A stretch of 64,000 bases of DNA from an uncultured Alphaproteobacteria bacterium (GTDB lineage: Bacteria; Pseudomonadota; Alphaproteobacteria; Rhodobacterales; Rhodobacteraceae): NCBI GenBank assembly GCA_963763295.1, contig CAVXOH010000017.1, positions 7,465 to 71,464 on the forward strand, given 5' to 3'. A model generated the notes under the pieces. It was not told the DNA's origin and made no database searches. It saw only the letters and a program-made list of their open reading frames with translations. This document shows, in pieces, positions 16,401-60,424 of the stretch. Each line of letters starts with the position of its first letter. Position 1 is the stretch's first letter. The translations under genes and the position numbers were made by a program.

Positions 16401-16472
16401 TCGTGCAAGCGTTGTGCATGAGTTCGTGCATGGATTGTGTATGAGCGAATTCAGCCATGTCGCTGTCGCCGC
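16401..16472. repeat. 11-bp-array element, family B copy 1
   Basis: GTGCA/GTGTA cores at 16403, 16414, 16426, 16437; the 36-bp flank matches 25297-25332 at 30/36. Confidence 0.8.
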
Positions 16473-16485
16473 AAGGGGAATTGAA

Positions 16486-17451
16486 TCACTGGTTGCGCTG
16501 CCGATAGAGCAGCCGCCGCATCGACCCCGTCTTCGAGCGCATCAGCAGCGTCTCGGTCTCCATCCACTCGCCGTCGCGCCGCGCGCCCCGCACGATCGAC
16601 CCGTCGGTCACCCCGGTGGCCGAGAAGATCACATGCTCCGTCACCATCTCGTCGCGGGTATAGACCCGGTCGAGGTCCTTGATCCCGGCCTTGTGCGCCC
16701 GCTTGCGCTCGTCGTCGTTGCGGAAGAGCAGCCGCCCAAGCATCTGGCCGCCCATGCATTTCAGCGCCGCCGCCGCCAGCACGCCCTCCGGCGCGCCGCC
16801 CGAGCCCATGTACATGTCGATGCCGGTCTTGTCCGGCTCGGCGCAGTGGATCACCCCGGCGACGTCGCCGTCGGTGATCAGCCGGATGCGGGCGCCGGTG
16901 GCGCGGATCTCGCCGATCAGCGCCTCGTGCCGCGGCCGCTCGAGCACGCAGACCATGATGCCGCTGGTCGCGGTGCCCTTGGCCCGGGCCAGCACCTGGA
17001 TCCGCTCGGTCGGGGTCATGTCGAGATCCACGAGCCCCTCCCGGTACCCGGGACCGATCGCGAGCTTGTCCATGTAGACGTCCGGCGCGTGCAGCATCGA
17101 GCCGCGCGGCCCCATCGCGATCACGGCGAGCGCGTTCGGCATGTCCTTCGCGGTGAGCGTCGTGCCCTCGAGCGGGTCGAGCGCGATGTCGACGCCGGGG
17201 CCGTCCCCGGTGCCGACCTCCTCGCCGATGTAGAGCATCGGCGCCTCGTCGCGCTCGCCCTCGCCGATGACGATGCGGCCCTGGATGTCGAGCATGTTGA
17301 GCTGCTTGCGCATCGCGTCGACGGCCGCCTGGTCGGCCGCCTTCTCGTCGCCCTGGCCGACCAGCTTGGCCGCGGCGATCGCGGCGGCCTCCGACACGCG
17401 CGCGAGTCCGAGCGACAGCATGCGGTCCGCAAAGATTTGGTCTTCGGCCAT
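16486..17451 (-). CDS. glpX: Class II fructose-1,6-bisphosphatase
   Basis: IVIGEGERDEAPML, DPLEGT, DGDVAG, GGAPEGV. Confidence 0.97.
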   Translation of the reverse strand: MAEDQIFADRMLSLGLARVSEAAAIAAAKLVGQGDEKAADQAAVDAMRKQLNMLDIQGRIVIGEGERDEAPMLYIGEEVGTGDGPGVDIALDPLEGTTLTAKDMPNALAVIAMGPRGSMLHAPDVYMDKLAIGPGYREGLVDLDMTPTERIQVLARAKGTATSGIMVCVLERPRHEALIGEIRATGARIRLITDGDVAGVIHCAEPDKTGIDMYMGSGGAPEGVLAAAALKCMGGQMLGRLLFRNDDERKRAHKAGIKDLDRVYTRDEMVTEHVIFSATGVTDGSIVRGARRDGEWMETETLLMRSKTGSMRRLLYRQRNQ

Positions 17452-17521
17452 CGGACACGTCCCTTTCTGCGATGCGCTGCCCTTCTAGGCGATCGGGCCG
17501 GGCCGGGGCAAGCTTTGCAGC

Positions 17522-18043
17522 CTACCGGGGCAGGGTGTCGCCGCCGGGGCCGAGCGGACGCTGCATCAGCACGGTGTCGACCCAGCGGCCGAACTTGAAG
17601 CCGACGGCCCGGAACGTGCCGGCGTGGCGGAAGCCGGCGCGGGCATGGACGGCGATCGAGGCCGCGTTGCCGCTGTCGCCGATCACCGCCAGCATCTGCC
17701 GCCCGCCCCAGGCGGTGCCGGCATCGATGAGCGCGGCGAGAAGCCCACTGCCGATGCCGCGGCCGACGGCGGCGGGGTCGAGGTAGATCGAATCCTCGAG
17801 CGTGAAACGGTAGGCGCTGCGCGCGCGATAGGGGGCGGCATACGCGTATCCGAGCAGCCGGCCGGCCTCCTCGGCGACGACGCAGGGGAGGCCGCGCCCG
17901 GCGATCTCCTCGAGCCGGCGTGCCATCTCGGCGGTGCCGGGCGGCACCTCCTCGAAGGTGGCGAGGCCGTGCAGGACATGGTGGGCGTAGATCGCCTCGA
18001 TCGCCGGCACATCGGCCGCGCGGGCCGGGCGGAGGTCGGGCAT
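17522..18043 (-). CDS. GNAT acetyltransferase, phosphinothricin/MddA-like
   Basis: ATFEE, GYAYAAPYRARSAY, GFKFGRWVD; TGATG overlap with hom. Confidence 0.9.
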   Translation of the reverse strand: MPDLRPARAADVPAIEAIYAHHVLHGLATFEEVPPGTAEMARRLEEIAGRGLPCVVAEEAGRLLGYAYAAPYRARSAYRFTLEDSIYLDPAAVGRGIGSGLLAALIDAGTAWGGRQMLAVIGDSGNAASIAVHARAGFRHAGTFRAVGFKFGRWVDTVLMQRPLGPGGDTLPR

Positions 18044-19329
18044 CAGAGCTCCTCGATGCGGATCGCGACCGGGGCGGCGCGGCAGACGTCGAGCCGGGCG
18101 ATCTCGGCGAGCGCACGGTCGAGCCCCGTTCGCTCGGCCTGGTGGGTGACGATGAGGATCGGCGCCTCGGCTCCGGCGTGCTCGACCTGGCGCATGCGGT
18201 TGATCGAGATGCCGGCGGCGCCGAGCGCGGCGGCGACCTTGGCAAGGACGCCCGGCGCGTCGTCGACGAGGAAGCGCAGGTAGTAGGCGGCCGGCGCGCC
18301 GTCCCCGGCCCGTCCCGGCGTCGCGAGCGTCGCGGCCGGGCGGCCGAACGGCGGGATCACCAGGCCGCGCGCGATGTCGACGATGTCGCCGACGATCGCC
18401 GAGGCGGTGGCCCCGGCGCCGGCGCCGGGGCCGGACATGACGATGCGGCCGACGAAGTCGCCCTCGAGCACGACCATGTTGGTGACGCCCTCGAGCTGGC
18501 CGAGCGGCGACGCCGCCGGGACCAGGCAGGGTTGCATCCGGGACTCGAGTCCGGCCGCGGTCATCCGGGCGACGCCGAGCAGCTTGATCCGGTAGCCGAG
18601 CTCGGCCGCGTGCTCGATGTCGGCGAGGCTGACGTGCTCGATGCCCTCGACCGTCATGCCGTCGAAGTCGATCCGGGTGCCGAAGGCGGCGGCGGCGAGG
18701 AGCGCGAGCTTCTGGGCCGCGTCGATGCCGCCGACGTCGAACGAGGGATCGGCCTCGGCGTAGCCGAGGCGCTTCGCCTCCTCGAGCACCTCGGCGTAGG
18801 GGGCGTCCTCCGCCTCCATTCGGGTCAGGATGTAGTTGCAGGTGCCGTTCATCACCCCCATGACCCGGGTGATCGCGTTGCCGGCGAGACCTTCGGTCAG
18901 CGCCTTGACGACCGGGATGCCCCCGGCGACCGCCGCCTCGAAGCGCAGCGCGACGCCGTTCGCCTCGGCGAGCTCGGCCAGCGCCTGCCCGTGCCGGGCG
19001 AGCATCGCCTTGTTCGCGGTGACGAGGTGCTTGCCGCCCCCGAGCGCCGCCGTCGCGGTCGCCTTGGCCGGCCCGTTCTCGCCGCCGACGACCTCGACCA
19101 CGAGGTCGACGTCGGCGCGGCGCGCCAGCGCCACCGGGTCGTCCTCCCACGCATAGGCGGCGAGGTCGACGCCGCGATCGCGGTGCCGCGAGCGCGCCGA
19201 GACCGCCGCGATCTCGACCGGCCGCCCGGCGCGGGCGGCGATCGTCGCGCCATGCGCCTGCATAATCCGCACGACCCCCGCGCCGACGGTGCCGAGGCCG
19301 GCGAGGCCGATGCGGAGCGGATCGGGCAT
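18043..19329 (-). CDS. hom: Homoserine dehydrogenase
   Basis: GLGTVG, VTANKA, EAAVAGGIP, NGTCNYIL, GYAEADP, C-terminal ACT domain. Confidence 0.97.
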   Translation of the reverse strand: MPDPLRIGLAGLGTVGAGVVRIMQAHGATIAARAGRPVEIAAVSARSRHRDRGVDLAAYAWEDDPVALARRADVDLVVEVVGGENGPAKATATAALGGGKHLVTANKAMLARHGQALAELAEANGVALRFEAAVAGGIPVVKALTEGLAGNAITRVMGVMNGTCNYILTRMEAEDAPYAEVLEEAKRLGYAEADPSFDVGGIDAAQKLALLAAAAFGTRIDFDGMTVEGIEHVSLADIEHAAELGYRIKLLGVARMTAAGLESRMQPCLVPAASPLGQLEGVTNMVVLEGDFVGRIVMSGPGAGAGATASAIVGDIVDIARGLVIPPFGRPAATLATPGRAGDGAPAAYYLRFLVDDAPGVLAKVAAALGAAGISINRMRQVEHAGAEAPILIVTHQAERTGLDRALAEIARLDVCRAAPVAIRIEEL

Positions 19330-19420
19330 GCGCGCCTCCAGCTGGTTTGGCCCGCTGCTTAAGCGAGGGCCGACCGCGCCGCAATGCGGAAGACGGCGGT
19401 GCCCGGCGGCGGCCGCGCCC

Positions 19421-19744
19421 CTAGTCCTCGAGGAAGCTCCTGAGGCGGGCGAGGGCGTCCTCCCATTGCCGGCCGACGGTCTCGAGACAGGCCTGCGCCT
19501 CGGCCAGCCGGTCGGGGCAGAGCGCGAAGCGGGTCTCGCGGCCCGCCCGCAGGCTGGCGACGACGCCGGCCTGCTCGAGCACGCGCAGATGCTTCGTCAT
19601 CGCCTGCCGGCTGATCGGCGCGCCCGCCGAGAGCTCGGTGACCGACCGGGTCCGGCCGTCCGCCAGGGTGGCGACGAGGCCGAGGCGGGTCGGGTCGCCG
19701 AGCGCGGCGAAGATCGGGGCGGCGGCCTCAGGCGCCGGTGACAT
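19421..19744 (-). CDS. ArsR/SmtB family transcriptional regulator
   Basis: FAALGDPTR, ISRQAMTKHLRVLE, GRETRF. Confidence 0.9.
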   Translation of the reverse strand: MSPAPEAAAPIFAALGDPTRLGLVATLADGRTRSVTELSAGAPISRQAMTKHLRVLEQAGVVASLRAGRETRFALCPDRLAEAQACLETVGRQWEDALARLRSFLED

Positions 19745-20186
19745 GGGCGCGGATGTTCTCCATCTGGATCTCCCAGCCGCCGCTGTTCTCCCGCATCGCG
19801 TTGCTGCGGAGCGGTTCCGGCAGCGCCTCGAAGCCGCTCTCGAGGACGGTGACGCGGGTCCCTCCGGCGATGGGCTCGAGGCGGAACTCGACGAGCGTCG
19901 TCGGGACGTCCCCGCTGGCCCGCCCGTCGGCGGTCTGCGGCCAGCGGAAGGCGAAGTAGGTCTCGGGCTCGATGGCGACGATGTCGGCCTCCCAGGCCAT
20001 GTGCTCGTAGCCGGGGTAGGTCATCTGGCCGAGCGACCTGCGGCCGACCTCGAAAGGAGCGTCGATCCGGGCGCGAAACCAGGTGCCGAACTCGCGCGAG
20101 TCGGTCAGCGCCCTCCAGACGCGGGAGGCCGGGGCCGCGATTTCGACGCTCCGCTCGATGCGGTCGGCGATGGTGGCATCTGGCAT
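19728..20186 (-). CDS. SRPBCC (AHSA1/START-like) family protein
   Basis: VWRALTD, FAFRW, TLVEFRLE, GTRVTVLESGF, GGWEIQ; GGAGG SD. Confidence 0.9.
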   Translation of the reverse strand: MPDATIADRIERSVEIAAPASRVWRALTDSREFGTWFRARIDAPFEVGRRSLGQMTYPGYEHMAWEADIVAIEPETYFAFRWPQTADGRASGDVPTTLVEFRLEPIAGGTRVTVLESGFEALPEPLRSNAMRENSGGWEIQMENIRAHVTGA

Positions 20187-20265
20187 GACTGGCAACCTCC
20201 TGGTTGCGGGATCATGCAGGACCGGCCACGCTTACGCAACCGAAAAGTTGCGTGAAGCCTCGGGC

Positions 20266-21501
20266 CTACGCCGCGGCTTCCTCGGCATGGTGCTTGGCGA
20301 GCAGCGCTTCGGCGTTCTGCATCACCTTGCGCACGCCGCGGGCCGCCTGGCGGATCCGGTGCTCGTTCTCGACGAGGCCGAGGCGGACATAGCCCTCGCC
20401 GTACTCGCCGAAGCCGACGCCGGGCGCCACGGCGACCTCGGCCTCCCGAAGCAGGATCTTCGAGAAGCCCATCGAGCCGATGCCGGCATAGGGCTCGGGC
20501 ACCGGCGCCCAGGCGAACATGGTCGCGGGCGGCGAGGGGATGTGCCAGCCCGCCCGGCCCATCGAGTCGATCAGGACGTCGCGCCGGTGCCGGTAGGTGC
20601 CGCGGATCTCGGCGACGCAGTCCTGCGGGCCGTTCAGCGCGGCGGCCGCGGCGACCTGGACCGGTGTGAAGGCGCCGTAGTCGAGGTAGGACTTGATCCG
20701 GGTCAGCGCGTCGACCAGCCGTGGATTGCCGACCGCGAAGCCCATCCGCCAGCCCGGCATCGCGTAGGTCTTGGACAGCGAGGTGAACTCGACGGCCACG
20801 TCCTTCGCACCTTCGATCTCGAGGATCGAGGGCGGCGGGACGCCGTCGAAGTAGATCTCGGCGTAGGCGAGGTCGGAGAGCACCCAGAGGTGGTGCTTCT
20901 TCGCGAAGGCGATCAGCGCGCGGTAGAAGTCGAGGTCGCAGACCTGCGCCGTCGGGTTCGATGGGAAGGAGACGACGAGCGCCACCGGCTTCGGCACCGA
21001 GTGGGTGACGGCGCGGTCGAGCGCGCGCAGGTACTGCTCGGGATCGAACCGGCCGTCGTGCAGCGCCGGCACGTGGCGCAGCGTGCCGCCGGCGATCATG
21101 AAGCCGTAGGGGTGGATCGGGTAGCTCGGGTTCGGCACCAGCATCACGTCGCCCGGCGCGGTGATCGCCATCGCGAGGTTGGCGAGCCCCTCCTTGGAGC
21201 CGAGCGTCGCGATCACCTCGGTCTCGGGGTCGAGCGTCACGCCGAAGCGGCGGGCGTAGTAGCCGGCTTGGGCGCGGCGCAGCCCCGGGATGCCCTTCGA
21301 GGCCGAATAGCGGTGGGTGCGCGGGCGGCGCACCGTCTCGACCAGCTTTTCCACTATATGGGAGGGCGTATCCATGTCCGGATTGCCCATGCCGAAGTCG
21401 ATGATGTCCATCCCCTCGGCGCGATAGCGGGCCTTGAGGCGGTTGACCTCGGCGAAGACGTAGGGCGGCAGGCGCTTGATGCGGTAGAACTCTTCGGACA
21501 T
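20266..21501 (-). CDS. PLP class I/II aminotransferase (AlaC / LL-diaminopimelate aminotransferase-like)
   Basis: LPPYVF, GMGNPD, FPSNPT, SDLAY, SLSKTYAMPGWRMG. Confidence 0.93.
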   Translation of the reverse strand: MSEEFYRIKRLPPYVFAEVNRLKARYRAEGMDIIDFGMGNPDMDTPSHIVEKLVETVRRPRTHRYSASKGIPGLRRAQAGYYARRFGVTLDPETEVIATLGSKEGLANLAMAITAPGDVMLVPNPSYPIHPYGFMIAGGTLRHVPALHDGRFDPEQYLRALDRAVTHSVPKPVALVVSFPSNPTAQVCDLDFYRALIAFAKKHHLWVLSDLAYAEIYFDGVPPPSILEIEGAKDVAVEFTSLSKTYAMPGWRMGFAVGNPRLVDALTRIKSYLDYGAFTPVQVAAAAALNGPQDCVAEIRGTYRHRRDVLIDSMGRAGWHIPSPPATMFAWAPVPEPYAGIGSMGFSKILLREAEVAVAPGVGFGEYGEGYVRLGLVENEHRIRQAARGVRKVMQNAEALLAKHHAEEAAA

Positions 21502-21612
21502 CGCTGGGGCTCGGCTGGCTCAGGCCGCCTTATACGACCGGGCCGGCGCGAAGGACAGGGCGATATGAACCCGCGCCCGACGCCGCCGGGCGCGGCGTCG
21601 GGACAGCCCGCT

Positions 21613-22473
21613 TCAGCGGCCGAAGGTCGCGAACGGGATGTTCCGGTCGCGGTGGTCGCCGCCGGCGGCGGCGGCGAAGTAGGCAGCGGCGGCGCAAACC
21701 ATCAGCGTCGCCGCGACGACGAAGGCGCCGATGGCGGTGGCGACGCGGATCTGCTCGGCCCGCTCGAGCGCCGCGTCGTAGAGCTCCTGCACCTGCGTCC
21801 GCGCGGCGTCGACCGCGGCCGCGGCCTCCTCCGGCGTCTGCCCGGTCCGCTCGGCCACGATCGACGCGGCGTAGTCGCGGTCCTCGGCGGAGAGCTCGCC
21901 GTCGGCGAGGCTGCGGGTGATCACCGCGACCACGTCCTGCCGGGCGCCGGTGTCCTCGGCGCCGCCGCTGCCGAGCAGGCGGCCGCCGATGAAGTCGACG
22001 TCGCCGCCGACGGCCTCGGCCGCGGTCTGCGCCACGGTGCCGGCGGCGGAGCCGGCCGCGCCGACGACCCCCGAAACGCCGCCGACCGCGAGCACGGCGC
22101 CGACGAGCGCGGCGGTCGCCCAGACGAGGACGCCGTGCGCGCCGTCGCGGGTCTCGGCTTCGTCGATGCCGACCCCGGGCAGCGTGCGGCGCATCCTCCC
22201 GGCCAGGTAGCCGCCGGCGGCGAAGCTGGTGACCGCGACCCAGACGAACCAGGCCCCGGACGCGATCGCGAGCCACCGCAGCGACGCGCCCTCGCCGGGG
22301 TCGAACGAGGTGATCGACAGGCCGATCCCCGAGCCGAAGGTGAAGAGGACGAAGGACAGCGCCACGGCGAGCGCGGTGCCGGCGAGGATCGCCGGCCAGT
22401 CGACGTAGCCGTCCATCACGAGGCCGCTGCGCAGCGCGGCATCGGTGGAGGCGGGGGCGGCGGGGTGGGTCAC
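21613..22473 (-). CDS. Hypothetical multi-TM membrane protein
   Basis: VDWPAILAG, GSGIGLS, GGYLAGR, RDGAHG; GTG start with GGAG SD. Confidence 0.8.
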   Translation of the reverse strand: MTHPAAPASTDAALRSGLVMDGYVDWPAILAGTALAVALSFVLFTFGSGIGLSITSFDPGEGASLRWLAIASGAWFVWVAVTSFAAGGYLAGRMRRTLPGVGIDEAETRDGAHGVLVWATAALVGAVLAVGGVSGVVGAAGSAAGTVAQTAAEAVGGDVDFIGGRLLGSGGAEDTGARQDVVAVITRSLADGELSAEDRDYAASIVAERTGQTPEEAAAAVDAARTQVQELYDAALERAEQIRVATAIGAFVVAATLMVCAAAAYFAAAAGGDHRDRNIPFATFGR

Positions 22474-22498
22474 GGCAGCACTCCCTGGCATCACGGCC

Positions 22499-22573
22499 TC
22501 AGGCCAGTCCGACGAGGGAGAGCAGCGCGAGCACGATCACGACAAGGCCGACCAGATAGATGATGCTGTGCAT
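22499..22573 (-). CDS. 24-aa single-helix small membrane protein
   Basis: MHSIIYLVGLVVIVLALLSLVGLA with a strong AAGGAG SD. Confidence 0.75.
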   Translation of the reverse strand: MHSIIYLVGLVVIVLALLSLVGLA

Positions 22574-22642
22574 GGAGTGGTCTCCTTTGCGGGTGCGGCC
22601 CGCCGGCCGGAACGGCGGCTGGGACGCGCTTTGCGTCCGGAC

Positions 22643-22667
22643 AATGCGGCGTCGACCGATTCGTTCC
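22643..22667 (-). promoter_or_regulatory. EcfG/RpoE2-type general stress promoter candidate
   Basis: Minus strand GGAAC-N16-CATT upstream of the small ORF. Confidence 0.5.
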
Positions 22668-22671
22668 CGCC

Positions 22672-22986
22672 TCAGCCGCCGGCCGCCTCGAGGCGCGGGC
22701 GGTCGGTCGGGTCGACGACCGGCGCCGACAGGCCGGCGGCGCGCGCCCGCAGCGCCTCGGCGCGGGCGGACAGCGCGGCGGCCCCGGCTTCGAGCCGCTC
22801 GGCATCGGGCGCGGCGCTGGCGAGCGCCGCATCGAACGCCGCCGTCGGCCCGAGCCGGGGCGGCGGCGCGGTCCGGGCGGCCTCGGACACCGGCGCGATC
22901 GCCTCGCGCGGCGCGCCGCAGGCGAGGAGCGCCGCCATCACCAGGAGGCCGGCAGTCGCGGGCGGCACGGCACGGCGAGGTCGCAT
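22672..22986 (-). CDS. Putative lipoprotein
   Basis: Lipobox LLAC and an Ala-rich helical body. Confidence 0.6.
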   Translation of the reverse strand: MRPRRAVPPATAGLLVMAALLACGAPREAIAPVSEAARTAPPPRLGPTAAFDAALASAAPDAERLEAGAAALSARAEALRARAAGLSAPVVDPTDRPRLEAAGG

Positions 22987-23075
22987 TGCTCTCTTTCTGG
23001 GCAAACCCCGGGTTGCAGGCTAGTATCGGCGCGATCGCCGCGCGCGGCAAGGCGCGGCCCTCGAGGGAGGATCGG

Positions 23076-24911: not shown

Positions 24912-24959
24912 CCGCAACTCCCGCCGGCCTGGGCCGGCGGAGAGCCGGCATCGTGCGCA

Positions 24960-25265
24960 GGAGCGAATCGAGGCGCCGCCGTTCGGCGCGCTTCGCGCTG
25001 CTGCTTGCATCCGACCGAAGCGGACCTTGGTCCGCGAGTTCCGGCCCGATCGGCCGACGGTCCAGTGGACCGTCGGCCGGGCCGTCGCCCGGAGCGCCAG
25101 CGCGGAGGGCGAGGGGGGTGCTGCCTGAACCGTCGGTCTCCAAGCCGGGCGCGGTCGCCCCGGGTGGCCGCGGCCGGCTTCGTCGACGGCCGAAGCCGGC
25201 AGGCGGCACCGTCCCGCAAGACGTCAGGCCGGGCGCTGGCGGACCCGGCGCAAAGGGTCAGGACA
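24960..25265. repeat. Multi-hairpin palindromic REP/MITE-like segment (family D)
   Basis: Perfect stems CGGCCGACGGTCC-agt-GGACCGTCGGCCG (25051-25079), GCGGACC-tt-GGTCCGC, GCCGGCTTCG-N8-CGAAGCCGGC; single copy in the window. Confidence 0.6.
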
Positions 25266-25274
25266 GAAGGCCAC

Positions 25275-25332
25275 TAGTTTGCGTTGTGCATGCCCCGTGC
25301 ATGAGCGGATCCCGCCATGTGGCTGTCGACGC
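25275..25332. repeat. 11-bp-array element, family B copy 2
   Basis: GTGCATG at 25286 and 25297, plus the flank shared with copy 1. Confidence 0.75.
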
Positions 25333-25365
25333 GGAGTTAATCCGCTCCGGCGCCCGAGGCCCGGC

Positions 25366-26662: not shown

Positions 26663-26820
26663 GGGCGCACCTCATCGGCTCGGGTCGGGCGTCAGATACC
26701 GCGAATACCGGGTCCGGGGAACCCGGAAAAACGGGGCGCCGCGGCGGCTCCGGCGACGGGTCTTGAGTTCGCAGGGGCGGCAGGCGAGAGTGGCGCACCT
26801 CGAGCGGCGGAGCGGACCCC

Positions 26821-27585: not shown

Positions 27586-27682
27586 CGGTGCGCAGCGCAC
27601 GGGCGCGCCTCGATGCCTGCGGATCACCCCACCTCATCGGGGACCGGCTGAACGGCTCGGTCTTCCCGACTTCGGCGGCCGG

Positions 27683-27797
27683 CGTTAACGATCCAATCCT
27701 GACCGTTTCAGGTGCCATATGGATTCCATATGCATTCCATACGCGTTCCAGATCGAGCGAATCCCCGTAAACCTTTGGCATCGAAGCCTTCACCCGG
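27683..27797 (+). repeat. 115-bp 11-bp-array element, family A copy 1
   Basis: 106/115 identical to the reverse complement of 45761-45875; four TTCCATAYG-type units at 11-bp period. Confidence 0.95.
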
Positions 27798-27805
27798 AGC
27801 CCGCC

Positions 27806-34088: not shown

Positions 34089-34282
34089 AGCCGGATGGAT
34101 TCACGCCCGGGCGATGGCCATGCCCGAAAGTCCGAAGCATCGGCGATGCTGGGCCTCTTCAAGAACCGAAGCACCGTCGCGACGACTATCGGGTAACGAT
34201 GATTAACCGCCGATTGACTTGCGACGACGGCGCGCGCCCCTCTCGTTTCGACCGTCGACTGCCGGAATTGTGCCGCAGGCGT

Positions 34283-34356
34283 CCCTGTGGGGCAGCGGGC
34301 TCCTGCACGGATTTGGTGCATGGATTGTGCATGGGATGTGCATGGGTTGTGCATGC
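34283..34356. repeat. 11-bp-array element, family B copy 3
   Basis: GTGCATG at 34316, 34327, 34338, 34349 (exact 11-bp period); upstream flank similar to the reverse complement of copy 4. Confidence 0.85.
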
Positions 34357-34476
34357 CTCCCGGGACGTCACCCCCGGCGACTTTCCGAGCGAGATCCGCG
34401 CCTTGCCCGGCCCGTCAACCAAGGTTAACGCCAGCGCGGGCCGCATTCGGACTCCGACCAACTCCGCCGGCCGGGA

Positions 34477-37723: not shown

Positions 37724-37814
37724 CGGGTGTTGCCGGCGGACTGCGGGCAGCGTTCGCCGGGGATTTCGCGCCCTCCCGCTGAATTCCGGGTCAAGCCGCT
37801 GAAAAGTGGCAAGA

Positions 37815-37880
37815 AATCGCATGCACAACACATGCACAAGTCATGCACCGATCATATGCGCGAATCCCGCACCCCAAGGG
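37815..37880. repeat. 11-bp-array element, family B copy 4 (opposite strand)
   Basis: TGCAC at 37822, 37833, 37844. Confidence 0.8.
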
Positions 37881-39844: not shown

Positions 39845-41944
39845 TCAATCGTCGCGTCGGCACTCGCGGCCGGCGCGGCCGGGCGGGCAGTCGGTCCTGC
39901 GCCGGGTCGGCGTCTCGGCCTGGCGCTGCGACCTTTGCCGCTCGGCTCGGGCGGCCTGTCGTCTCTCCCGTTCGGCCGCCCGCTCGCGGGCTGCGCCGCG
40001 GGCCTGTTGCCGCTCCAAGGCCGCAGCCCGCGCCCTCTCCTCCCGCGCAGCCGCCTCGGCCTGCCGCTGCTCGCGGTCGCGGGCAACTTGGGCACGCTCA
40101 CGCTGCTGGGTGGCCCGTGCCCTCTGTTCGTCCCGTTGGCGGGCGGCCGCCTGGGCCTTCTGTTCCTCCCGTGCGGCCTGGGCGTTCTGCTCCTCTCGCG
40201 CACGGGCGGCTCGGGCCTTCTGCCGCTCCTGCGCGCCCCGTGCATTCTGCTCGTCCCGCTCCCGGGCGGCGGCGCGGGCTTTCTGCTGCTCCTGCGCGGT
40301 CCGAGCGTTCTGCTCGTCCCGCTCGCGGGCAGCGGCGCGGGCTCTCTGCTGCTCCTGCGCGGTCCGAGCTTTCTGTTCGTCCCGCTCACGGGCAACGGCG
40401 CGGGCTTTCTGCTGCTCCTGCGCGGCGCGGGCCTCCTGCTCGTCCCGTTCACGCACAGCGGCTCGGGCCTTCTGTTGCTCCTGCGCGCCCTGTGCCTTCG
40501 GCTCGTCCTGCTCGCGGGCAGCAGCTCGGGCCTTCTGTTGCTCCTGCGCGGCCTGGGCCTTCTGCTCGTTCCGTTCGCGTGCAGCCGCTCGAGCCTTCCG
40601 CCGCTCCTGCGCGGAGCGGGCCTCCGGTTCGCGTTCGCGGGCGGGAATGCCGGCCTTCTCTGGTTCCCGCTGAGCGCGTGCCTGCTCTGCGCGTCGGGCG
40701 GCGGAACGGGTGCGGTCGGCGTCCTGCTGTCGGCGCTCTTCGGCGGCGGCACGGACCCGTTCCGCCTGCCGCTTGCGGGCGGCGACGCTCGCAGGCTCCT
40801 TCGCCGCGGCCGGCGGCCGCGCGCGGTCGGCTGCCTGCTCGCGGGCGGCGGCGCGGCGCAGCGCGCGGGCGCGTTCGGCGTGGGCCTCGTGAGCGAGCGC
40901 GGCCTGGCGGAGGGTCCCGAGGCGAGCCGGGGCGGCCGACGGGTGGTCGATCCAGGCGATCGCGTCGCGGCGGTGGCGGGCGTGACGTTCGCGGGCAACC
41001 TCGTCGTAGCGCCAGGTGTCGCGGCGGCGGTCCCAGTAGGCGTCGCGCTCGCGGCTCCAGGCGTAGTCGTTGCGGTCCCGCTGCCAGTGACCATGCGGGC
41101 GCGGATAGAACTCGCGGTCGCGCCAGTCGATCGGGCGGCGATCGTCCCAGTAGTCGTCCCAGCCGTCGTCGCTGTCGTCGTCGGCGAAAAGCTCCTGGAC
41201 GAGCAGCGTGGCGCCGAAGGCGATGGCGCCGGCGACGAGGGGATTGGCGAAGCCGCTCCGCGGCGGCGCGATGTAGGGAGACGCGGTGGGCGCCGAGGTG
41301 AAGGCGAGCGCGGGGTCGTAGTTCGGCACGTAGACGACCTCGGGATCGGCGGGACGGATGTAGATCTGCTCGTCGTCCTCCTCGACCACCTGGGCGGCGT
41401 TGCTCGTGAGATAGCCGGTGTCGAGCGCCTGCTCGCGCATCCGTTGCACCGCGGCGAGGACGTCGTCGTCCTGGACGAGCATGGCGTTGCCGAGGGCCTC
41501 GGTCCAGTCGAGGTCGTCGGCCATCCGCTCGACCACGGTCGGGAAGCCGGAGAGCAGGACGAGGATGCTCGGGTCCCAGTCCTGCGCGGCGATGTGCTCG
41601 GTCAACTCGTCGTCCGAAAGGCCCTCGCTTTCCTCGAGCAGCCGGCCGGCCTTGACGACCTGGAGCGGGTAGGTAGCGGCGACGAGCACCTGGGCGAGGA
41701 GCGCGTCCGGGTAAAGCGCGACCGGCGCCACGATCTCGTCGAGCGCGTCGGCGGCGAGGAGGGGCTCGGCATCGATCGCGTCGGCGCCCAACGACGTCTC
41801 GAGATCACCCGCGTCGGGTCGCTCTGCATCGAGCAGCGCCTCGAGATCGGTCGCGTCGGCCTCCTGGGCCGGGGCGTGGCGCGGCAGGCCGGCCGTCGCA
41901 ACCAGGATGGCCGCCACGGCCACCGTGCTCTTCAACCACAGCAT
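39845..41944 (-). CDS. DUF3300-like secreted protein with a long charged repeat tail
   Basis: Signal peptide; LDEIVAPVALYPDALLAQVLVAATYP, WDPS, WTEALGNA, AVQRMR, PADPEVVYVPNYDP. Confidence 0.85.
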   Translation of the reverse strand: MLWLKSTVAVAAILVATAGLPRHAPAQEADATDLEALLDAERPDAGDLETSLGADAIDAEPLLAADALDEIVAPVALYPDALLAQVLVAATYPLQVVKAGRLLEESEGLSDDELTEHIAAQDWDPSILVLLSGFPTVVERMADDLDWTEALGNAMLVQDDDVLAAVQRMREQALDTGYLTSNAAQVVEEDDEQIYIRPADPEVVYVPNYDPALAFTSAPTASPYIAPPRSGFANPLVAGAIAFGATLLVQELFADDDSDDGWDDYWDDRRPIDWRDREFYPRPHGHWQRDRNDYAWSRERDAYWDRRRDTWRYDEVARERHARHRRDAIAWIDHPSAAPARLGTLRQAALAHEAHAERARALRRAAAREQAADRARPPAAAKEPASVAARKRQAERVRAAAEERRQQDADRTRSAARRAEQARAQREPEKAGIPAREREPEARSAQERRKARAAARERNEQKAQAAQEQQKARAAAREQDEPKAQGAQEQQKARAAVRERDEQEARAAQEQQKARAVARERDEQKARTAQEQQRARAAARERDEQNARTAQEQQKARAAARERDEQNARGAQERQKARAARAREEQNAQAAREEQKAQAAARQRDEQRARATQQRERAQVARDREQRQAEAAAREERARAAALERQQARGAARERAAERERRQAARAERQRSQRQAETPTRRRTDCPPGRAGRECRRDD
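40090..40625 (-). repeat. 63-bp (21-aa) coding tandem repeat, about 8 units
   Basis: Anchors at 40245, 40308, 40371; unit AQEQQKARAAARERDEQKART. Confidence 0.9.
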
Positions 41945-42004
41945 TGCGTTCCCCTCCAGGCGGGCCACGGCCCGATCTGGATATAAGGCCGGATCGCCCG
42001 CGAT

Positions 42005-42019
42005 GTTCCTCACCTGTTC
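42005..42019. promoter_or_regulatory. Alphaproteobacterial LexA box candidate
   Basis: Exact GTTC-N7-GTTC (GTTCCTCACCTGTTC), about 60 bp upstream of the DUF3300 start. Confidence 0.5.
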
Positions 42020-44337: not shown

Positions 44338-45753
44338 ATGCGTCGGCGGACCGTGCTGGCGGGGGCGGCGGCCTGGCTTGCGGCGCCCGCGCTGCGTCCG
44401 GTGGCGGCGGCCTCGGCGCCGTCGCTCGCGACGATCCTCGAGTCCTCGGGGCTCGCGGCCGAGACCGGGCTCGCGGTGGTGGATCTCGCTTCGGGGCAGG
44501 TGCTCGAGGCACACCAGCCCGACCACGACCGGCCGCCCGGATCGGTCGCGAAGATCGTCACCGCGCTGTGGGGCCTCGATGCGTTGGGGCCGGACTACCG
44601 GTTCCGAACCGAGATCCGGGGCACCGGGCCGGTCGCGGACGGGAATCTCCACGGCGACCTGGTGCTCGCCGGCGGGGGCGATCCTCTGCTCGACACCGAT
44701 GCGCTCGGGGACATGGTGCGGGCGCTGAGGGCGTGCGGGCTGGCGGAGGTGAGGGGGCGGTTCCTTGTCGCCGACGGTGCGCTGCCGGCGGTGGCGGAGG
44801 TCGATCCGGGGCAGCCGGCGGATGCGGCCTATAACCCGGCCATCTCGGGGATGAACCTGAACTTCAACCGGGTCTTCCTCGCATGGAGTCCGGGCGCCGA
44901 CGGCCCCGATGTCGCCTTCAGTGCGCCCGGGGCGCGTTTCGAGGTGCCGGCGGCGGGCTTCGCGGCCGAGCTGGTCGGCGCAGGGCTGCCGCGGCACCGG
45001 ATCGAAGCGGGGCAGGAGATCTGGACGCTCGCGCGGGGCGGCCTCGCCGGCAGCGGCAGCGTCTGGTTGCCGGTGCGTGCGCCGGCCGCCTATGCCGGCG
45101 CGGTCTTCGGCGGCCTGGCGGCCGGGGCCGGGCTCGCGCTGCCCGCCGCGGAGATGGCGGCGGCAGGATCGGGCGCGCTCATGGCTGTGCGGCAGGGTCC
45201 GCCGCTCGACGCGATGCTCCGGGACATGCTCAACTACTCGACCAATCTGACGGCCGAGATCGTCGGGCTCCGCGCCGCGCAGGCGAAGGGGCAGGAGCCC
45301 GGCGGAGTCGCGGCCTCGGCCGCGGCGATGTCGGACTGGGCGCGCGGGCGGTTCGGGCTGCGGCGGATGGCGTTCGTCGATCATTCGGGGCTGGGCGGCG
45401 GCTCGCAGGTGACGGCGGCCGAACTAGTCGCCGTGCTGCGGCAGGCAGACCCGCTCGGCTTGCCCGGGCTCCTGCGCGAGCGGCCGATTCTCGCGGCCGA
45501 CCGCAGCCCGGTGGAGATCGGAGGGGTGCGGGTGGTGTCGAAGACGGGGACGCTCGATTTCGTCAGCGCGCTGGCCGGCTACATGATCGGACCGCGCCGG
45601 CTCGCCTTCGCGATCCTCGCCGCCGATCCGGAGCGCCGGGCGCGGATCCGGCCGGAGGAGCGGGCGCAGCCGCCCGGCGCGACCGCCTGGGCCACGCGGG
45701 CGCGGGCGGAGCAGCAGGCCCTGCTCCGGCGCTGGGCAGCGATCTACGGGTGA
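44338..45753 (+). CDS. dacB: D-Ala-D-Ala carboxypeptidase/endopeptidase (PBP4)
   Basis: GSVAK (SxxK), GGGDP, YSTN (SxN), DHSGL, KTGTL. Confidence 0.92.
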   Translation: MRRRTVLAGAAAWLAAPALRPVAAASAPSLATILESSGLAAETGLAVVDLASGQVLEAHQPDHDRPPGSVAKIVTALWGLDALGPDYRFRTEIRGTGPVADGNLHGDLVLAGGGDPLLDTDALGDMVRALRACGLAEVRGRFLVADGALPAVAEVDPGQPADAAYNPAISGMNLNFNRVFLAWSPGADGPDVAFSAPGARFEVPAAGFAAELVGAGLPRHRIEAGQEIWTLARGGLAGSGSVWLPVRAPAAYAGAVFGGLAAGAGLALPAAEMAAAGSGALMAVRQGPPLDAMLRDMLNYSTNLTAEIVGLRAAQAKGQEPGGVAASAAAMSDWARGRFGLRRMAFVDHSGLGGGSQVTAAELVAVLRQADPLGLPGLLRERPILAADRSPVEIGGVRVVSKTGTLDFVSALAGYMIGPRRLAFAILAADPERRARIRPEERAQPPGATAWATRARAEQQALLRRWAAIYG

Positions 45754-45760
45754 CAGGGGA

Positions 45761-45875
45761 CCGGGGGAAGACTTCGATGTGAAAGGTTTACGCGGATTCG
45801 CTCGATCTGGAACGCGTATGGAAGCCATATGGAAACCGTATGGCACCTGAAACGGTCAGGATTGGATCGTTAACG
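45761..45875 (-). repeat. Family A element copy 2
   Basis: Reverse complement of 27683-27797 at about 92% identity. Confidence 0.95.
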
Positions 45876-45933
45876 CAGGCGCGACGCTCGACGCCGCTCG
45901 GCGAGAGCTCGTCGACGTGCGGCCTTGGCGGAT

Positions 45934-49473: not shown

Positions 49474-49627
49474 GCCGAGCACCCGGGACAGGAGATTTAT
49501 CCGCCCGTGGTAGAATAGGACTTAGGGCGGCGTCGGCTCGGTTGAAATCATTCGTATTTCCCTTCGTCGCGGGCTGGATGCGCGGGGCGTCCGGCGCAAG
49601 GTCGGCGACGATTCGACGGAGGCGGGC

Positions 49628-50330: not shown

Positions 50331-50439
50331 ACATCACGCGGGATTTCCGACAAAACGCCGCGAAAATCGGCTATGGTCCCGCGCGAGCCGGACGAACGCG
50401 GCTGAACCACCCGAGCAAACATTCCAGAGCAGGCAAAAA

Positions 50440-51139: not shown

Positions 51140-51140
51140 G

Positions 51141-51605: not shown

Positions 51606-51618
51606 CCGGGTCGGGACG

Positions 51619-54101: not shown

Positions 54102-54142
54102 GACAGAAGGCCCTGAACGGGGCGGAAAAGGGTAGGTGACAG

Positions 54143-54664
54143 ATGAAGACGTTGACGGCAGGCGTGCTGCTCGCGCTGGCACTGGTGGCGGCGGGATGCG
54201 GCCGCAACGCGGACGTGACGATCCCGGGCTCGCCCGATGCGGGCTACAGCGGCGCCGACGGCACGCTCGGCGGCCTCGGGGCCGGCGGACTGGCCGGGGG
54301 CGGCGTGCTGCCGGGCTCGACGATCAGCGACCGGGTGCTGTTCGCGGTCGACCAGTCGACGCTGTCGGCCGAGGCGATCGGCACCCTCAACGCGCAGGTC
54401 GGCTGGCTGATGCAGAACCCGTCGGCGCCGATCCTGATCGAGGGTCACGCCGACGAGCGGGGCACGGGCGAGTACAACATGGCGCTCGGCTCGAGCCGGG
54501 CCAGCGCGGTGCGCAACCACATGGTGAGCCAGGGCATCCCGGACAGCCGCATCTCGATCATCACCTTCGGCCGCGAGCGCCCGATCGCGACCTGTGCGGA
54601 CGAGAGCTGCTTTTCGCAGAACCGCCGCGCTGTCACGGTTGTGACTGGCGGCACCGGCGCGTGA
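54143..54664 (+). CDS. pal: Peptidoglycan-associated lipoprotein
   Basis: Lipobox AAGC; IEGHADERGTGEYNMALG, GRERP, QNRRAV. Confidence 0.96.
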   Translation: MKTLTAGVLLALALVAAGCGRNADVTIPGSPDAGYSGADGTLGGLGAGGLAGGGVLPGSTISDRVLFAVDQSTLSAEAIGTLNAQVGWLMQNPSAPILIEGHADERGTGEYNMALGSSRASAVRNHMVSQGIPDSRISIITFGRERPIATCADESCFSQNRRAVTVVTGGTGA

Positions 54665-54695
54665 TCCGCTAGGCTCGCCCGCAAGGAGAAGCCGC

Positions 54696-55526
54696 ATGCG
54701 CATCAGAGCTCTGCACGGTCTGGCGCTCGCGACCGCGCTCGTCCTCGGCGCGCCGGTGGCGGCGCAGCCGCAGACGCTGGCCGACATCAAGGCCGAACTC
54801 ACGGTGCTGAACGGGCAGATCGAGCAGCTGCGCAACGAGCTGGTGCGCAGCGGCAGCTCCGGCGGCCTGCCGGTTGACCCGGCGTCGGCGCTGACCAGGC
54901 TCGACCAGCTCGAAGCCGAGCTCCGGCGGCTGACCGACCGGGTCGACGTGCTGACCAACGATGTCGAGCGGATCGTCGAGGACGCGACCAACCATGTCGG
55001 CGACATCGAGTTCCGCCTGACCGAGCTCGAGGGCGGCGTTACCAGCGTGCGGACCGAGCCCGAGCCGCTCGGCGGCGGCGTCACGCGGCCGCGGCCGCGG
55101 CCGATCGCGCCGTCGGTGGCCCCGGAAGGCACCGGGGCGCTGGTGGCGACCGAGCAGGCCGACTTCGACGCGGCGGTGGCGGCGGCCGACGCCGGCGACA
55201 ACGCCAAGGCGGCGGCGCTGTTCGGGACGTTCCTGCAGACCTATCCGGGCGGCCCGCTGTCGACCGAGGCGCAGTTCCGCCGCGGCGAGGCGCTGGCGGC
55301 GCAGGAGGACTGGCGCGGAGCGGCACGGAGCTTCCTCGACACCTTCAGCGGCGCCCCGCAGGACCCGCTGGCGCCGCGGGCGCTCTACAGGCTCGCGGTC
55401 AGCCTCGGCAAGCTCGGCCAGACCGACGAGGCGTGCCTGACGCTGACCGAGGTCGACAGCCGTTATCCGGGCTCGGTGGTGGCAGGCGACGTTGCCGCGG
55501 AGCGGCGGACGCTCGCCTGCCCGTGA
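54696..55526 (+). CDS. cpoB: Tol-Pal protein CpoB/YbgF
   Basis: Signal peptide, coiled coil, TPR motifs; operon position. Confidence 0.9.
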   Translation: MRIRALHGLALATALVLGAPVAAQPQTLADIKAELTVLNGQIEQLRNELVRSGSSGGLPVDPASALTRLDQLEAELRRLTDRVDVLTNDVERIVEDATNHVGDIEFRLTELEGGVTSVRTEPEPLGGGVTRPRPRPIAPSVAPEGTGALVATEQADFDAAVAAADAGDNAKAAALFGTFLQTYPGGPLSTEAQFRRGEALAAQEDWRGAARSFLDTFSGAPQDPLAPRALYRLAVSLGKLGQTDEACLTLTEVDSRYPGSVVAGDVAAERRTLACP

Positions 55527-56791
55527 CGCTGCCGCCGGGGCTCGCGTCGGCCCTCGACGCGGTGGTGGCCGCGGCACCGGAGGGCGAGATCGGCGTCGCG
55601 GTGTCGGGCGGCGGCGACTCGATGGCGCTCCTGCTCCTGCTGGAGGAGGCGGCGGCGCGCGCCGGGCGGGTCGTTGCAGCGGTGACGGTCGACCATTGCC
55701 TGCGGCCGGAGAGCGGCGGCGAGGCGGCGGCGGTGGCTGCGCTGTGCGCCGGCCGCGGGATCGCGCACGCGACCTGCCGCTGGGGGGACTGGGACGGGGC
55801 GGGCAACCTCCTGGACCGGGCGCGACAGGCGCGTCGCGCGCTGATCGCCGACTGGGCGCGCGGCCGCGGCATCGGGGCGGTCGCCCTCGGCCACACGCTC
55901 GACGATCAGGCGGAGACGGTGGTGCTGCGGCTGGCGCGCGGATCGGGCGTCGACGGGCTGGCCGGGATGGCGGCGGTGGTGCGAGCGGAGGGGATCCTGT
56001 GGCTCCGGCCGCTGCTCGGGGTCCGGCGCACGGCGCTCCGGGGCTGGCTCGAGACCAAGGGCGTGGGCTGGGCGGAGGATCCGAGCAACCTCGACCTGCG
56101 CTTCGAACGCGTTCGCGCCCGCGCGGCGCTGCCGGCGCTCGCGGCGCTCGGCATCGGGCCTGAGCGGCTGGCGGCGACGGCGCGGGCGATGGCGCGGGCA
56201 CGGGAGGCGCTGGAGCGGGGCACCGCGGCGCTGGCGGCCGCCTGCGTGACGCCGGGTCCGGCGGGGGACCTGACGCTCGATCCGGGACCGCTGACGGCGG
56301 CGCCGGAGGAGTTGCGGCTGCGGCTGCTCGCCGGGGCGGTCTGCTGGGTCGCGGGCGCGGTGTACCGGCCTCGGCTGGTGCGGCTCGAGGCGGCGCTCGC
56401 GGCGGTGGAAGCGGGGCGGGTCGGCCATGGGGTGACGCTGCACGGGTGCGTGCTGCGGGCCCGCGGCGGGCGGATTGCGATCCGCCGCGAGCTGGCGCGG
56501 GTGGCGCCGGCGGTGCCGCTGGCGGCCGGGCGCTGGGACGGCCGCTGGCAGATCGAGGGGAAGCCGCCGACCGGCGACGGGCTCACGATCGGGGCGCTCG
56601 GCCCGGGCGGATTGGCACGGATCGCGGGCGGGGCACCCGCCGGCGTGGCGCGCGAGACGCTGGTGACGACGCCCGCGATCTGGCGCGACGGGGCGTTGGT
56701 GGCGGCGCCGTTGGCGCGGCCGGAGGCGGGATTCAGCTTCCGGCGAGTCTCCGCCGTGACGCCGCCGTGGGCGCCGGATATAGTGCGTTAA
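55523..56791 (+). CDS. tilS: tRNA(Ile)-lysidine synthetase
   Basis: AVSGGGDS, VDH, GHTLDDQAET, RGSG, RPLL, EDPSN; GTG start overlapping the cpoB stop. Confidence 0.95.
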   Translation: MTLPPGLASALDAVVAAAPEGEIGVAVSGGGDSMALLLLLEEAAARAGRVVAAVTVDHCLRPESGGEAAAVAALCAGRGIAHATCRWGDWDGAGNLLDRARQARRALIADWARGRGIGAVALGHTLDDQAETVVLRLARGSGVDGLAGMAAVVRAEGILWLRPLLGVRRTALRGWLETKGVGWAEDPSNLDLRFERVRARAALPALAALGIGPERLAATARAMARAREALERGTAALAAACVTPGPAGDLTLDPGPLTAAPEELRLRLLAGAVCWVAGAVYRPRLVRLEAALAAVEAGRVGHGVTLHGCVLRARGGRIAIRRELARVAPAVPLAAGRWDGRWQIEGKPPTGDGLTIGALGPGGLARIAGGAPAGVARETLVTTPAIWRDGALVAAPLARPEAGFSFRRVSAVTPPWAPDIVR

Positions 56792-56876
56792 ATCCGGGGC
56801 GCCACCGCTTATGTTAGGGAGCAAGACCCGCGGGCCAATGCGTCCGCCCTGCCGGTCGCTCTAGGAGACGTCGAAC

Positions 56877-58796
<1,920 letters not shown>

Positions 58797-58822
58797 GTCC
58801 GGAGCGGCCCCTGCAGCACGTC

Positions 58823-59329
58823 GTGGTGATGGGGGTTTCAGGCTGCGGCAAGACGACCGTCGGCGAGGGGTTGGCGGAAGCGCTCGGCTGGCCGTTCGAG
58901 GAGGGCGACCAGCACCACCCGCCGGCAAACGTCGCCAAGATGGCGGCGCATGTCCCGCTCGACGATGCCGATCGCTGGCCGTGGCTGCGAACCCTGGCGG
59001 GGCTGATCGGCGAACGCGAGGCCGCCGGGCGGTCGTCGGTGCTGACGTGCTCGGCCCTGAAGCGCTCCTACCGCGATCTGCTCAGGACCGGCGCGCCGCG
59101 GGTGCGCTTCGTGCACCTCGATGGCGATCCCAAGATCCTGCAGGCGCGGCTCGCCAGCCGGGTCGGGCATTTCTTTCCGCCTGACCTGCTCGCCTCGCAA
59201 CTCGCGACGCTCGAGCCGCTCGGGCCGGACGAGGACGGCATCGTCGTCGACATCGCCCTCGATCCGACGGCGCAGGTGCGCGAGAGCCTTGCCCGCCTCG
59301 GGCTGGAGGCGCTGGCGGGCCGGGCCTGA
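58823..59329 (+). CDS. gntK: Gluconokinase (start may be CTG 58793)
   Basis: MGVSGCGKTT, EGDQHHP, PLDDADRWPWL, CSALKRSYR, GHFF, SQLATLE. Confidence 0.92.
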   Translation: MVMGVSGCGKTTVGEGLAEALGWPFEEGDQHHPPANVAKMAAHVPLDDADRWPWLRTLAGLIGEREAAGRSSVLTCSALKRSYRDLLRTGAPRVRFVHLDGDPKILQARLASRVGHFFPPDLLASQLATLEPLGPDEDGIVVDIALDPTAQVRESLARLGLEALAGRA

Positions 59330-59435
59330 CACTCGATGCCATTGCCGCCGCGTCCGCCGGGTGGGGGCGAGCGCGCCGGTTGCGCCGGTTCGGAGATGCC
59401 GCTAAGCGGGCGCCGGGGCTTGCGTGAGGTCGCCG

Positions 59436-60326
59436 ATGGGCGCGGACATCATCGATGGCAAGGCGTTCGCGGCGCGGATCCGCGCCCGGGTGGCGGGGAT
59501 CGTGGCCGAGCTCGGCGTGCAGGGCATCGTGCCCGGCCTCGCGGTGGTGCTGGTCGGCGACGATCCGGCGAGCGAGGTCTATGTCCGCAGCAAGGGCAAG
59601 CAGACCCGCGAGATCGGGATGCATTCGCAGGAGCACCGGCTGGCGGCGACGGCGAGCGAGGGCGAGGTTCTCGGGGTGATCGCGCGGCTGAACCAGGACC
59701 CGGCGGTCCATGGCATCCTGGTGCAGCTGCCGCTGCCGGCGCAGATCGACACGGCGCGGGTGCTCGATGCGGTGACGCCGGAGAAGGACGTCGACGGCTT
59801 CCACGTGCTGAACGCCGGCCGGCTCGCCATCGGGCAGCCGGCGATGGTGCCGTGCACGCCGCTCGGCTGCCTGATGCTGCTGCGCGACCGGCTGGGCGAC
59901 CTCGCCGGGCTCGACGCGGTGGTGATTGGGCGGTCGAACATCGTCGGCAAGCCGATGGCGCAGCTGCTGCTGCGGGAGAACTGCACGGTGACGGTCGCGC
60001 ATTCGCGGAGCCGGGGGTTGCCGGGGATCGCGGCGAGGGCCGACGTTCTCGTGGCGGCGGTTGGGCGGCCGGGGCTGGTGACCGGGGACTGGGTGAAGCC
60101 GGGGGCGACGGTGATCGACGTCGGGATCAGCCGGGTGGCGCGGCCGGAGGGGGTGATCGAGCTGGTCGGGGACGTCGATTTTTCGAGCGTTTCCAAGGTC
60201 GCCGGTGCGCTCACGCCGGTGCCGGGCGGGGTCGGGCCGATGACGATCGCCTGCCTGCTGGCGAATACGGTGACCGCGTGCTGCCGGATTCGGGGGCTGC
60301 CGGAGCCGGAAGGTCTGACGGCCTGA
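59436..60326 (+). CDS. folD: Methylene-THF dehydrogenase/cyclohydrolase
   Basis: [43 protein letters not shown]. Confidence 0.97.
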
Positions 60327-60424
60327 TATCAAAGGTTTACGAGGATCCGCGCGATATGGAACCCGTATGGAACCCATATGGAATGCGTATGGGTAGCAAA
60401 AGACTCGGGATTGAATCGTTAAGG
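60325..60424 (-). repeat. Family A element copy 3 (diverged)
   Basis: Ungapped match to copy 1 at about 77/100; 11-bp units and both ends (TTAACGAT, GTAAACCTTTG) kept. Confidence 0.88.

Follow-up and report, generated by a model that had tools for sequence, protein, structure and literature searches.

Dispersed elements built on phased 11-bp direct repeats are polarised relative to GC skew in Amaricoccus and other Rhodobacterales

Introduction

Several described systems share features with the elements treated here. REP/BIME and REPIN-RAYT repeats are palindromic hairpins, often arranged in inverted pairs, that come with a RAYT gene, and miniature inverted-repeat transposable elements (MITEs) are defined by terminal inverted repeats and target-site duplications. 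KOPS, Chi and Ter are single short words that occur clade-wide and inside genes, Ter being few in number. Iteron and centromere arrays consist of tandem direct repeats of about one helical turn, each with a core and a variable spacer, and are bound by ribbon-helix-helix or winged-helix proteins; examples are the parC site of plasmid R1, with 11-bp repeats, and Pho boxes. Finally, IS200/IS605 insertion sequences (IS) and their non-autonomous derivatives (PATEs), which are moved as single strands by the Y1 HUH transposase TnpA at the lagging-strand template, have a strong family-wide orientation bias linked to replication (PMC5027513), and such a bias is documented for transposable elements (PMC3971601, PMC5027513). 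Here we compare with these systems a set of elements carrying arrays of 11-bp direct repeats, seven of which lie in a 64,000-nt stretch of DNA (hereafter the window; contig C17, positions 7465-71464) from an uncultured member of the Rhodobacteraceae, placed in the genus Amaricoccus by the reference taxonomy. Its assembly (G000, hereafter the source genome) comprises 5.24 Mb in 21 contigs, with 70% G+C and 92% completeness.

Anatomy of the elements

The first-pass annotation of the window had assigned the arrays to two families, A and B, and had proposed that both belong to one genome-wide system. We scanned genomes with regular expressions for the A unit RTATGGAAnnC and the B unit GTGCATGnnnn, the strand of any array being that which reads RTATGGAA (A) or YATGCAC (B). 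This gave about 86 A arrays of two to four units and about 127 B arrays in the source genome, about 213 in total, which are short, non-coding and multi-copy and lie in frames of 105-330 bp. Three-unit patterns matched 100 times for A and 170 times for B, and the reversed control of either pattern gave no match. Tandem Repeats Finder (TRF) reported 253 arrays of period 11, whereas periods 10 and 13 gave 30 and 94. The number of arrays lies far above what chance would yield.

The proposal of a single system is borne out by homologous arms of fixed length and by hybrid copies. The arms common to A (forward) and B (reverse) read AAGGTTWACG...GGATTCGC-[array]-...GTCAGGATTG...GTTAAC, and the A frame is CGAyGyCAAAGGTTTACG-sGGATTCGCt...[array]...cAcCTrAAAcrGTCAGGATTGrATCGTTAACGC. 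Among the 59 A frames of the source genome, 48 measure exactly 91 nt from AAGGTTTACG to GTTAA. Their conservation is block-wise with fixed spacing, several columns reaching 95-100% and others about 45%. Between the arms of an element, which end in GTTWAC motifs, stand three to five 11-bp units; in each unit 8 nt are conserved as a core (RTATGGAA or YATGCACR) and the other 3 vary. The 91-nt set also contains hybrids, with A arms and ATGCAC units at C7:397699, C7:425222 and C10:83962, as well as one B3-type copy; a further frame, CTGAAAAG..GAAAAyCGC-[array]-GTGTTTTCG, carries either A or B units.

Read in reverse, B2 is GGGATTCGCT-[CATGCAC units]-CATATGCTAAGGAAAAGAGTCAGGATTGC and B3 is CAAGGGTTAACGGCGATTCC-[units]-...GGAAGGTTAACG; both then share with A the block GGATTCGCT plus GTCAGGATTG or AAGGTTAACG. 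The homologous orientation is therefore A forward with B reverse, and the earlier caveat that the two families run in opposite directions was correct. At about 325 nt, B1 is longer; it stops sharply at CAAGGTTAACGCC, and its mean column identity is 83% over a 13-copy alignment. The GTTAAC-like motifs reported at element ends were recovered: GTTAA closes the A frame, CGTTAACC(C)TT stands at both B3 ends, and B1 ends CAAGGTTAACGCC. The sole likeness between the two frame ends is that of GTTTACG at one to the reverse complement of CGTTAAC at the other, with no extended inverted repeat.

Concerning the units themselves, the likeness claimed between the A core YRTATGGAA and TGCATGGAT holds for the first unit of the B1 type but is lost over all units, the B core being GTGCATG, in which GGA is not conserved. 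Compared column by column, the A and B unit matrices correlate at best at 0.37 when B is reversed and at 0.33 when it is read forward, and a joint model of the unit brings hardly any gain over separate motifs. A and B arrays look like alternative cassettes in a common frame and not like diverged copies of one motif.

A separate observation concerns GANTC, the word methylated by CcrM in alphaproteobacteria. It occurs 14.6 times per kb in the 59 A frames versus 1.18 per kb genome-wide, an excess for which the AT-richer composition of these frames accounts in part, and its positions are constant: it forms part of GGATTCG in the left arm, of GAATCG in the right arm and of GGAATCC in the units.

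Strand polarity

The first-pass annotation would have regarded its proposal as refuted by a joint motif model no better than separate ones together with the lack of any positional or strand pattern; we found a strong strand pattern linked to GC skew, which is replicated in other genomes. With skew taken locally, in windows of ±10 kb or ±25 kb round each array, the array strand is the locally G-rich strand at 159 of the 213 arrays of the source genome (54 opposed; ±10 kb, p=3e-13), and at 145 of 213 with ±25 kb. Where |skew| exceeds 0.04 at ±10 kb, co-oriented arrays outnumber opposed ones by 31:6 in A and 44:7 in B, and each subfamily is polarised 3-4:1. Contig C5, whose skew is negative over 540 kb, holds 22 '-' and 6 '+' arrays, and C19, with positive skew, is its mirror image; at 180-200 kb of C19, four '-' arrays within this '+' contig coincide with a short segment of opposite skew. 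Array orientation follows 10-kb skew better than 50-kb skew, which fits a historical orientation carried along by inversions.

In other genomes, A arrays examined in 8-kb loci are co-oriented by 76:8 (84 loci, p=5e-15), and loci from Rhodobacterales other than Amaricoccus by 26:2 (28 loci, p=3e-6), the genera including Amylibacter, Marinosulfonomonas, Rhodovulum, Puniceibacterium, Octadecabacter, Frigidibacter and others. B arrays behave likewise in another species, G014, with 27:6 (33 arrays, p=3e-4). No mention of replication polarity in such 11-bp elements was found in open-access literature, and a search of the same text with the exact element sequences returned no paper.

Predicted genes of the source genome are co-oriented with skew in 49% of cases, so gene direction is not the cause of the polarity, and array orientation is moreover random relative to flanking genes in tandem spacers (see below). 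Neither is base composition the cause, because on the co-oriented strand A units are G-rich and B units C-rich, yet both track skew; an artefact of composition and a model of hairpin instability were both rejected on this ground. By tracking skew instead of genes, the polarity ties the elements to replication.

Placement and distribution

Genes were predicted with a rough GC3-based caller, on which the classes of spacer rest. By these calls, 199 of the 213 arrays are intergenic, with 76 in convergent spacers versus 46 expected from spacer length, 17 versus 47 in divergent spacers and 106 versus 106 in tandem ones (p=4e-9). Divergent (promoter) spacers thus have 2.8-fold fewer arrays than expected and convergent ones an excess, and many copies begin a few bases past a stop codon. 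In tandem-gene spacers their orientation relative to the flanking genes is random (27:20 for A, 23:22 for B). In three Rhodobacteraceae genomes (loci L108, L110 and L114), an A-type array also precedes lpdA (dihydrolipoyl dehydrogenase, MSxYDVIIIG...), 25-36 nt upstream of its start.

The elements have undergone bursts of multiplication in certain species only. Of 41 relatives, 9 contain the A pattern, all within the genus, with 100 matches in G000, 93 in G002, 35 in G023 and 28 in G022, whereas the B pattern gives 170 in G000, 71 in G058, 52 in G016 and 41 in G014, is abundant also in G002 and G056, and is missing from 24 of 47 genomes. The two are uncoupled, G016 having 52 B and no A and G023 35 A and no B, and a 400-kb sample of G006 shows no excess of period 11, with only two chance arrays. 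Outside the genus, an A array in a GTTAAC-flanked frame was found in a Rhodovulum metagenome-assembled genome, and A arrays in other flanks in several Rhodobacteraceae genera. Positions of the elements are not conserved between species and the spacers cannot be aligned. In four congeners the spacer orthologous to the B1 site is without the element, and so is a near-identical activated-sludge contig, which ends before a clean junction. A plasmid or phage origin was rejected, as plasmids gave no match to the arrays and viral contigs only 3 stray ones.

Several kinds of protein had been suggested to recognise both families. A mobilising enzyme fits best and may be kept as a candidate, whereas a core host nucleoid or partition factor is unlikely, since arrays are absent from about half of the congeners, A and B counts vary independently from 0 to more than 100, and the 400-kb sample of G006 has no excess.

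The seven elements of the window

All seven 11-bp arrays reported in the window are present, six detected by TRF at period 11 and one, of two units, by regular expression; all lie between predicted genes and none in a divergent spacer, in agreement with the intergenic placement first described. The first is a B element with a B2-like right arm (agcgaattcagccatgtcgctgtcg...) at 16403..16481 (minus strand), whose four-unit GTGCATG-type array spans 16401-16445 and whose sequence recurs at three or more other loci. A B2 copy on the minus strand at 25256..25352 has the two-unit array (25286-25303), followed by agcggatcccgccatgtggctgtcgacgcgg; an unrelated dispersed repeat at 24988-25250, common to up to 51 other loci, adjoins it. 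An A element of the long A1 subtype occupies 27664..27804 (minus strand; 91-nt core frame 27685-27775, array 27715-27750). The B1 element, about 325 nt long (GCCGCGATGGCCATGCCCGAAAG ... CCGTCAACCAAGGTTAACGCC), lies at 34110..34469 on the minus strand with a four-unit array at 34316-34355, and belongs to the 13-copy alignment.

The remaining three are on the plus strand. The element at 37783..37870 is a B array (37820-37848) in a 'CTGAAAAG...GAAAtCGC' frame, which is also found with some A arrays; here only the array itself is multi-copy. A second long A1 element spans 45751..45890 (91-nt frame 45783-45873, array 45817-45843), and an A element lies at 60316..60435 (91-nt frame 60332-60422, four-unit array 60355-60392). 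Within the window, the three arrays in clearly positive skew (37.8-60.4 kb) are all co-oriented, and the four located before 34.4 kb, where skew is near zero, face the opposite way. Array orientation switches between 34316 and 37820, near the point where skew turns positive (about 40 kb).

Synteny breaks at several of the window elements. For the 37820 element four congeners were searched and for the 45817 element eight, and in none of them are the two flanking genes adjacent, which identifies both sites as breakpoints.

The window has other repeats as well. An AT-richer region at 359-650 has an iteron-like layout, with three tandem TGTAACCGT (421-448) facing three ACGGTTAC (544-568). A 63-bp sequence is repeated eight times in tandem (80% matches) at 40112-40623, inside a long minus-strand open reading frame (39845-42013), whose encoded protein is therefore repetitive.

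Elsewhere in the source genome, a separate MITE-like element of about 270 bp, starting TCATACGGGATCCGGTTGATCGCTTCGCC, is present in more than 20 copies. In about eight of them it carries a 1.4-kb IS at one fixed internal position (C1:83239-84889, C5:434817-436460, C7:69885-71537 and others), which suggests a site-specific IS. This element adjoins an A copy on C5 (rc 200192) and a B array at C6:33196.

Origin of the elements

We lean towards the view that A and B differ in their cassette but form one superfamily of short dispersed repeats, about 105-330 bp long and without coding capacity or palindromes, that are selfish, mobilised in trans and inserted in a manner coupled to replication. What typifies selfish dispersed repeats is seen here: copy numbers that are patchy, uncoupled and suggestive of bursts, positions that are not conserved, and avoidance of promoters. 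The rigid phasing and the conservation in blocks point to putative protein-binding sites kept by selection, and most simply the phased 11-bp units would be the binding sites of the mobilising protein. By analogy with IS200/IS605, insertion may be strand-specific and coupled to the replication fork, which would be the simplest mechanism that has a precedent (PMC5027513, PMC3971601); the co-oriented strand, lying on the G-rich strand, is taken to be leading-strand sequence or, equivalently, lagging-strand template. The polarity, present in 75-93% of copies, is not explained by any known enzyme. None of those acting on single strands fits, given that Y1 is absent, Y2 uncorrelated and the required hairpins missing, and the enzyme would probably lie outside the known HUH families.

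Candidates for a parent or mobiliser were considered in turn. Orphan left ends proved to be chance matches inside genes or an unrelated IS, and the IS families of the source genome have different termini. Genes between neighbouring co-oriented arrays are ordinary ones (a ROK kinase; a TauD-type dioxygenase; a glutathione S-transferase and a permease). A derivative of IS91/ISCR (Y2 HUH) was rejected because PF04986 is uncorrelated with the arrays. We note that a fragment of an IS91-family (Y2 HUH) transposase lies just upstream of the window (C17:4919-5326), one of six such matches in the source genome.

A number of observations weigh against the reading of trans-mobilised, replication-coupled elements. 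No transposition event or empty site was found, empty paralogous sites being sought in the source genome and none encountered; the elements show no terminal inverted repeat, and no direct repeat that would mark a target duplication is visible at the boundaries of conservation, the ends not being fixed by any empty site. The source genome holds no autonomous parent with the same ends. The Y1 HUH/RAYT domain (PF01797) has no match in the array-rich G000 (92% complete), G002, G022 and G023, and the Y2/IS91 domain (PF04986), which is present in G000, is absent from the array-rich G014, G016, G022, G023 and G058 and present in array-free genomes. The array kept upstream of lpdA in three genomes hints at a local function. 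Moreover, polarity amounts to 70% in copies at least 88% identical to another copy, versus 77-80% in older or solo arrays; the youngest copies are not more polarised, contrary to what a pure insertion bias decaying with age predicts. The G-rich strand is the leading strand in most bacteria, and this is assumed for these genomes, the source genome being in 21 contigs. In a closed relative (G022:C1), skew over 20 windows of 20 kb changes sign many times with no two-arm pattern, so that this chromosome is either heavily rearranged or weakly skewed.

The age comparison bears on a rival that remains live, although we consider it unlikely: the elements would be mobile but their polarity made by selection after insertion, a head-to-tail protein oligomer or transcription of the element hindering forks in one direction and wrongly oriented copies being purged. 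Consistent with this, polarity is slightly higher in diverged and solo arrays, it is the same in many unrelated flanks and genera (the 26:2 set), and direct 11-bp repeats would bind proteins as an asymmetric head-to-tail array. However, arrays persist in short segments opposed to replichore-scale skew, such as the four on C19, orientation tracks 10-kb skew better than 50-kb skew, and no sigma-70-like promoter was found in the elements.

A host function as polar landmarks is weaker and distinctly doubtful. The arrays would here be cis-sites of a replication or segregation system, read by a fork, a translocase or a terminator-like protein as KOPS, Chi or Ter are, and the frames would merely carry them. 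In E. coli, Chi and KOPS have a polarity in the same range; the arrays combine a strictly conserved core with exact 11-bp phasing and a fixed frame length, and their motif is common to several Rhodobacterales genera. Nonetheless, about half of the congeners lack arrays, complete genomes included, the numbers of A and B vary without coupling, arrays occur in spacers only and at positions not conserved between species, and a copy number of 0 to more than 100 is unsuited to a core chromosome function.

It is improbable that the elements are small RNA genes or 3'-untranslated RNA modules whose UAUGGAA/AUGCAC repeats titrate an RNA-binding protein, in the way of a CsrB or TwoAYGGAY-type sponge. AUGGAA and AUGGAU do resemble GGA-type protein-binding motifs, many copies start just past a stop codon, and B arrays give weak terminator-like hairpins. 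Yet with RNAalifold 48 A copies yielded no consensus structure for either strand, covariation lends the B1 fold no support (its term is positive, i.e. unfavourable), Rfam gave no match on the elements at gathering score or at E<=5, and no sigma-70-like promoter sites were seen in them; together with the random orientation to genes, this makes a role at the RNA level unlikely. The known families TwoAYGGAY and CsrB/RsmZ were rejected, with no covariance-model match and no conserved structure.

Least probable of all is that the arrays act as operators for a transcription factor recognising 11-bp direct repeats (e.g. an OmpR/PhoB-type response regulator), the repeats spreading its regulon: the unit anatomy matches that of Pho boxes and Streptomyces PhoP repeat units (7-8 conserved and 3-4 variable bases, 2-5 tandem units) and the lpdA arrays would suit such a role, but the 2.8-fold depletion from divergent spacers, the enrichment in convergent ones, a polarity that follows skew and not genes, and the patchy distribution within the genus speak against it.

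As a broader and tentative suggestion, the phased YATG-core units might be cis-sites of an undescribed strand-specific machine in Rhodobacterales, either a new class of fork-coupled mobile element that needs neither hairpins nor a known HUH transposase, or a genome-wide polar landmark system, read on the lagging-strand template, that hitch-hikes in repeat frames. If insertion is fork-coupled, the route of mobilisation would be one not yet described; if polarity is selected, the arrays reveal a polar protein-DNA barrier or landmark. In practice, they may serve to mark replication direction and past inversions in fragmented assemblies of Rhodobacterales, a group that includes wastewater and marine bacteria. 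As arrays coincide with synteny breakpoints, they probably shape genome rearrangement in this group.

Comparison with known systems

Dispersed spacer repeats are in general common; what is unusual is that the elements combine a lack of palindromes and inverted ends with an exchangeable cassette of direct repeats in helical phase, a rigid length and 75-93% polarity across genera. As in REP/BIME and REPIN-RAYT, hundreds of short non-coding copies occupy spacers, enriched at gene 3' ends and convergent gaps, with lineage-specific expansions, but the elements have neither palindrome nor RAYT, and show direct repeats and replication polarity instead. They recall MITEs in size, copy number, subfamily structure, burst-like distribution and lack of coding capacity, whereas the inverted repeats and target duplications that define MITEs are not seen and no parent IS was found.

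With KOPS, Chi and Ter they share a constant strand orientation within each replichore-like skew domain, yet the elements are of 100-330 bp, lie in spacers and are absent from many congeners. With iteron and centromere arrays they share tandem direct repeats of about one helical turn, with core and variable spacer; unlike them, they have no adjacent par, rep or regulated genes and no plasmid match, and are dispersed over the chromosome in about 200 copies.

The closest parallels are with IS200/IS605 and PATEs. Both sets have a strong family-wide orientation bias linked to replication, and neither terminal inverted repeats nor target duplications are seen in our elements, as in IS200/IS605. The would-be 'top' strand of the elements is likewise on the lagging-strand template, and their conserved left end contains TTAC, which is the target word of IS608. 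Unlike IS200/IS605, the elements are without subterminal hairpins, and array-rich genomes without a Y1 transposase; they also possess an internal cassette of 11-bp direct repeats, which to our knowledge is not a feature of IS200/IS605.

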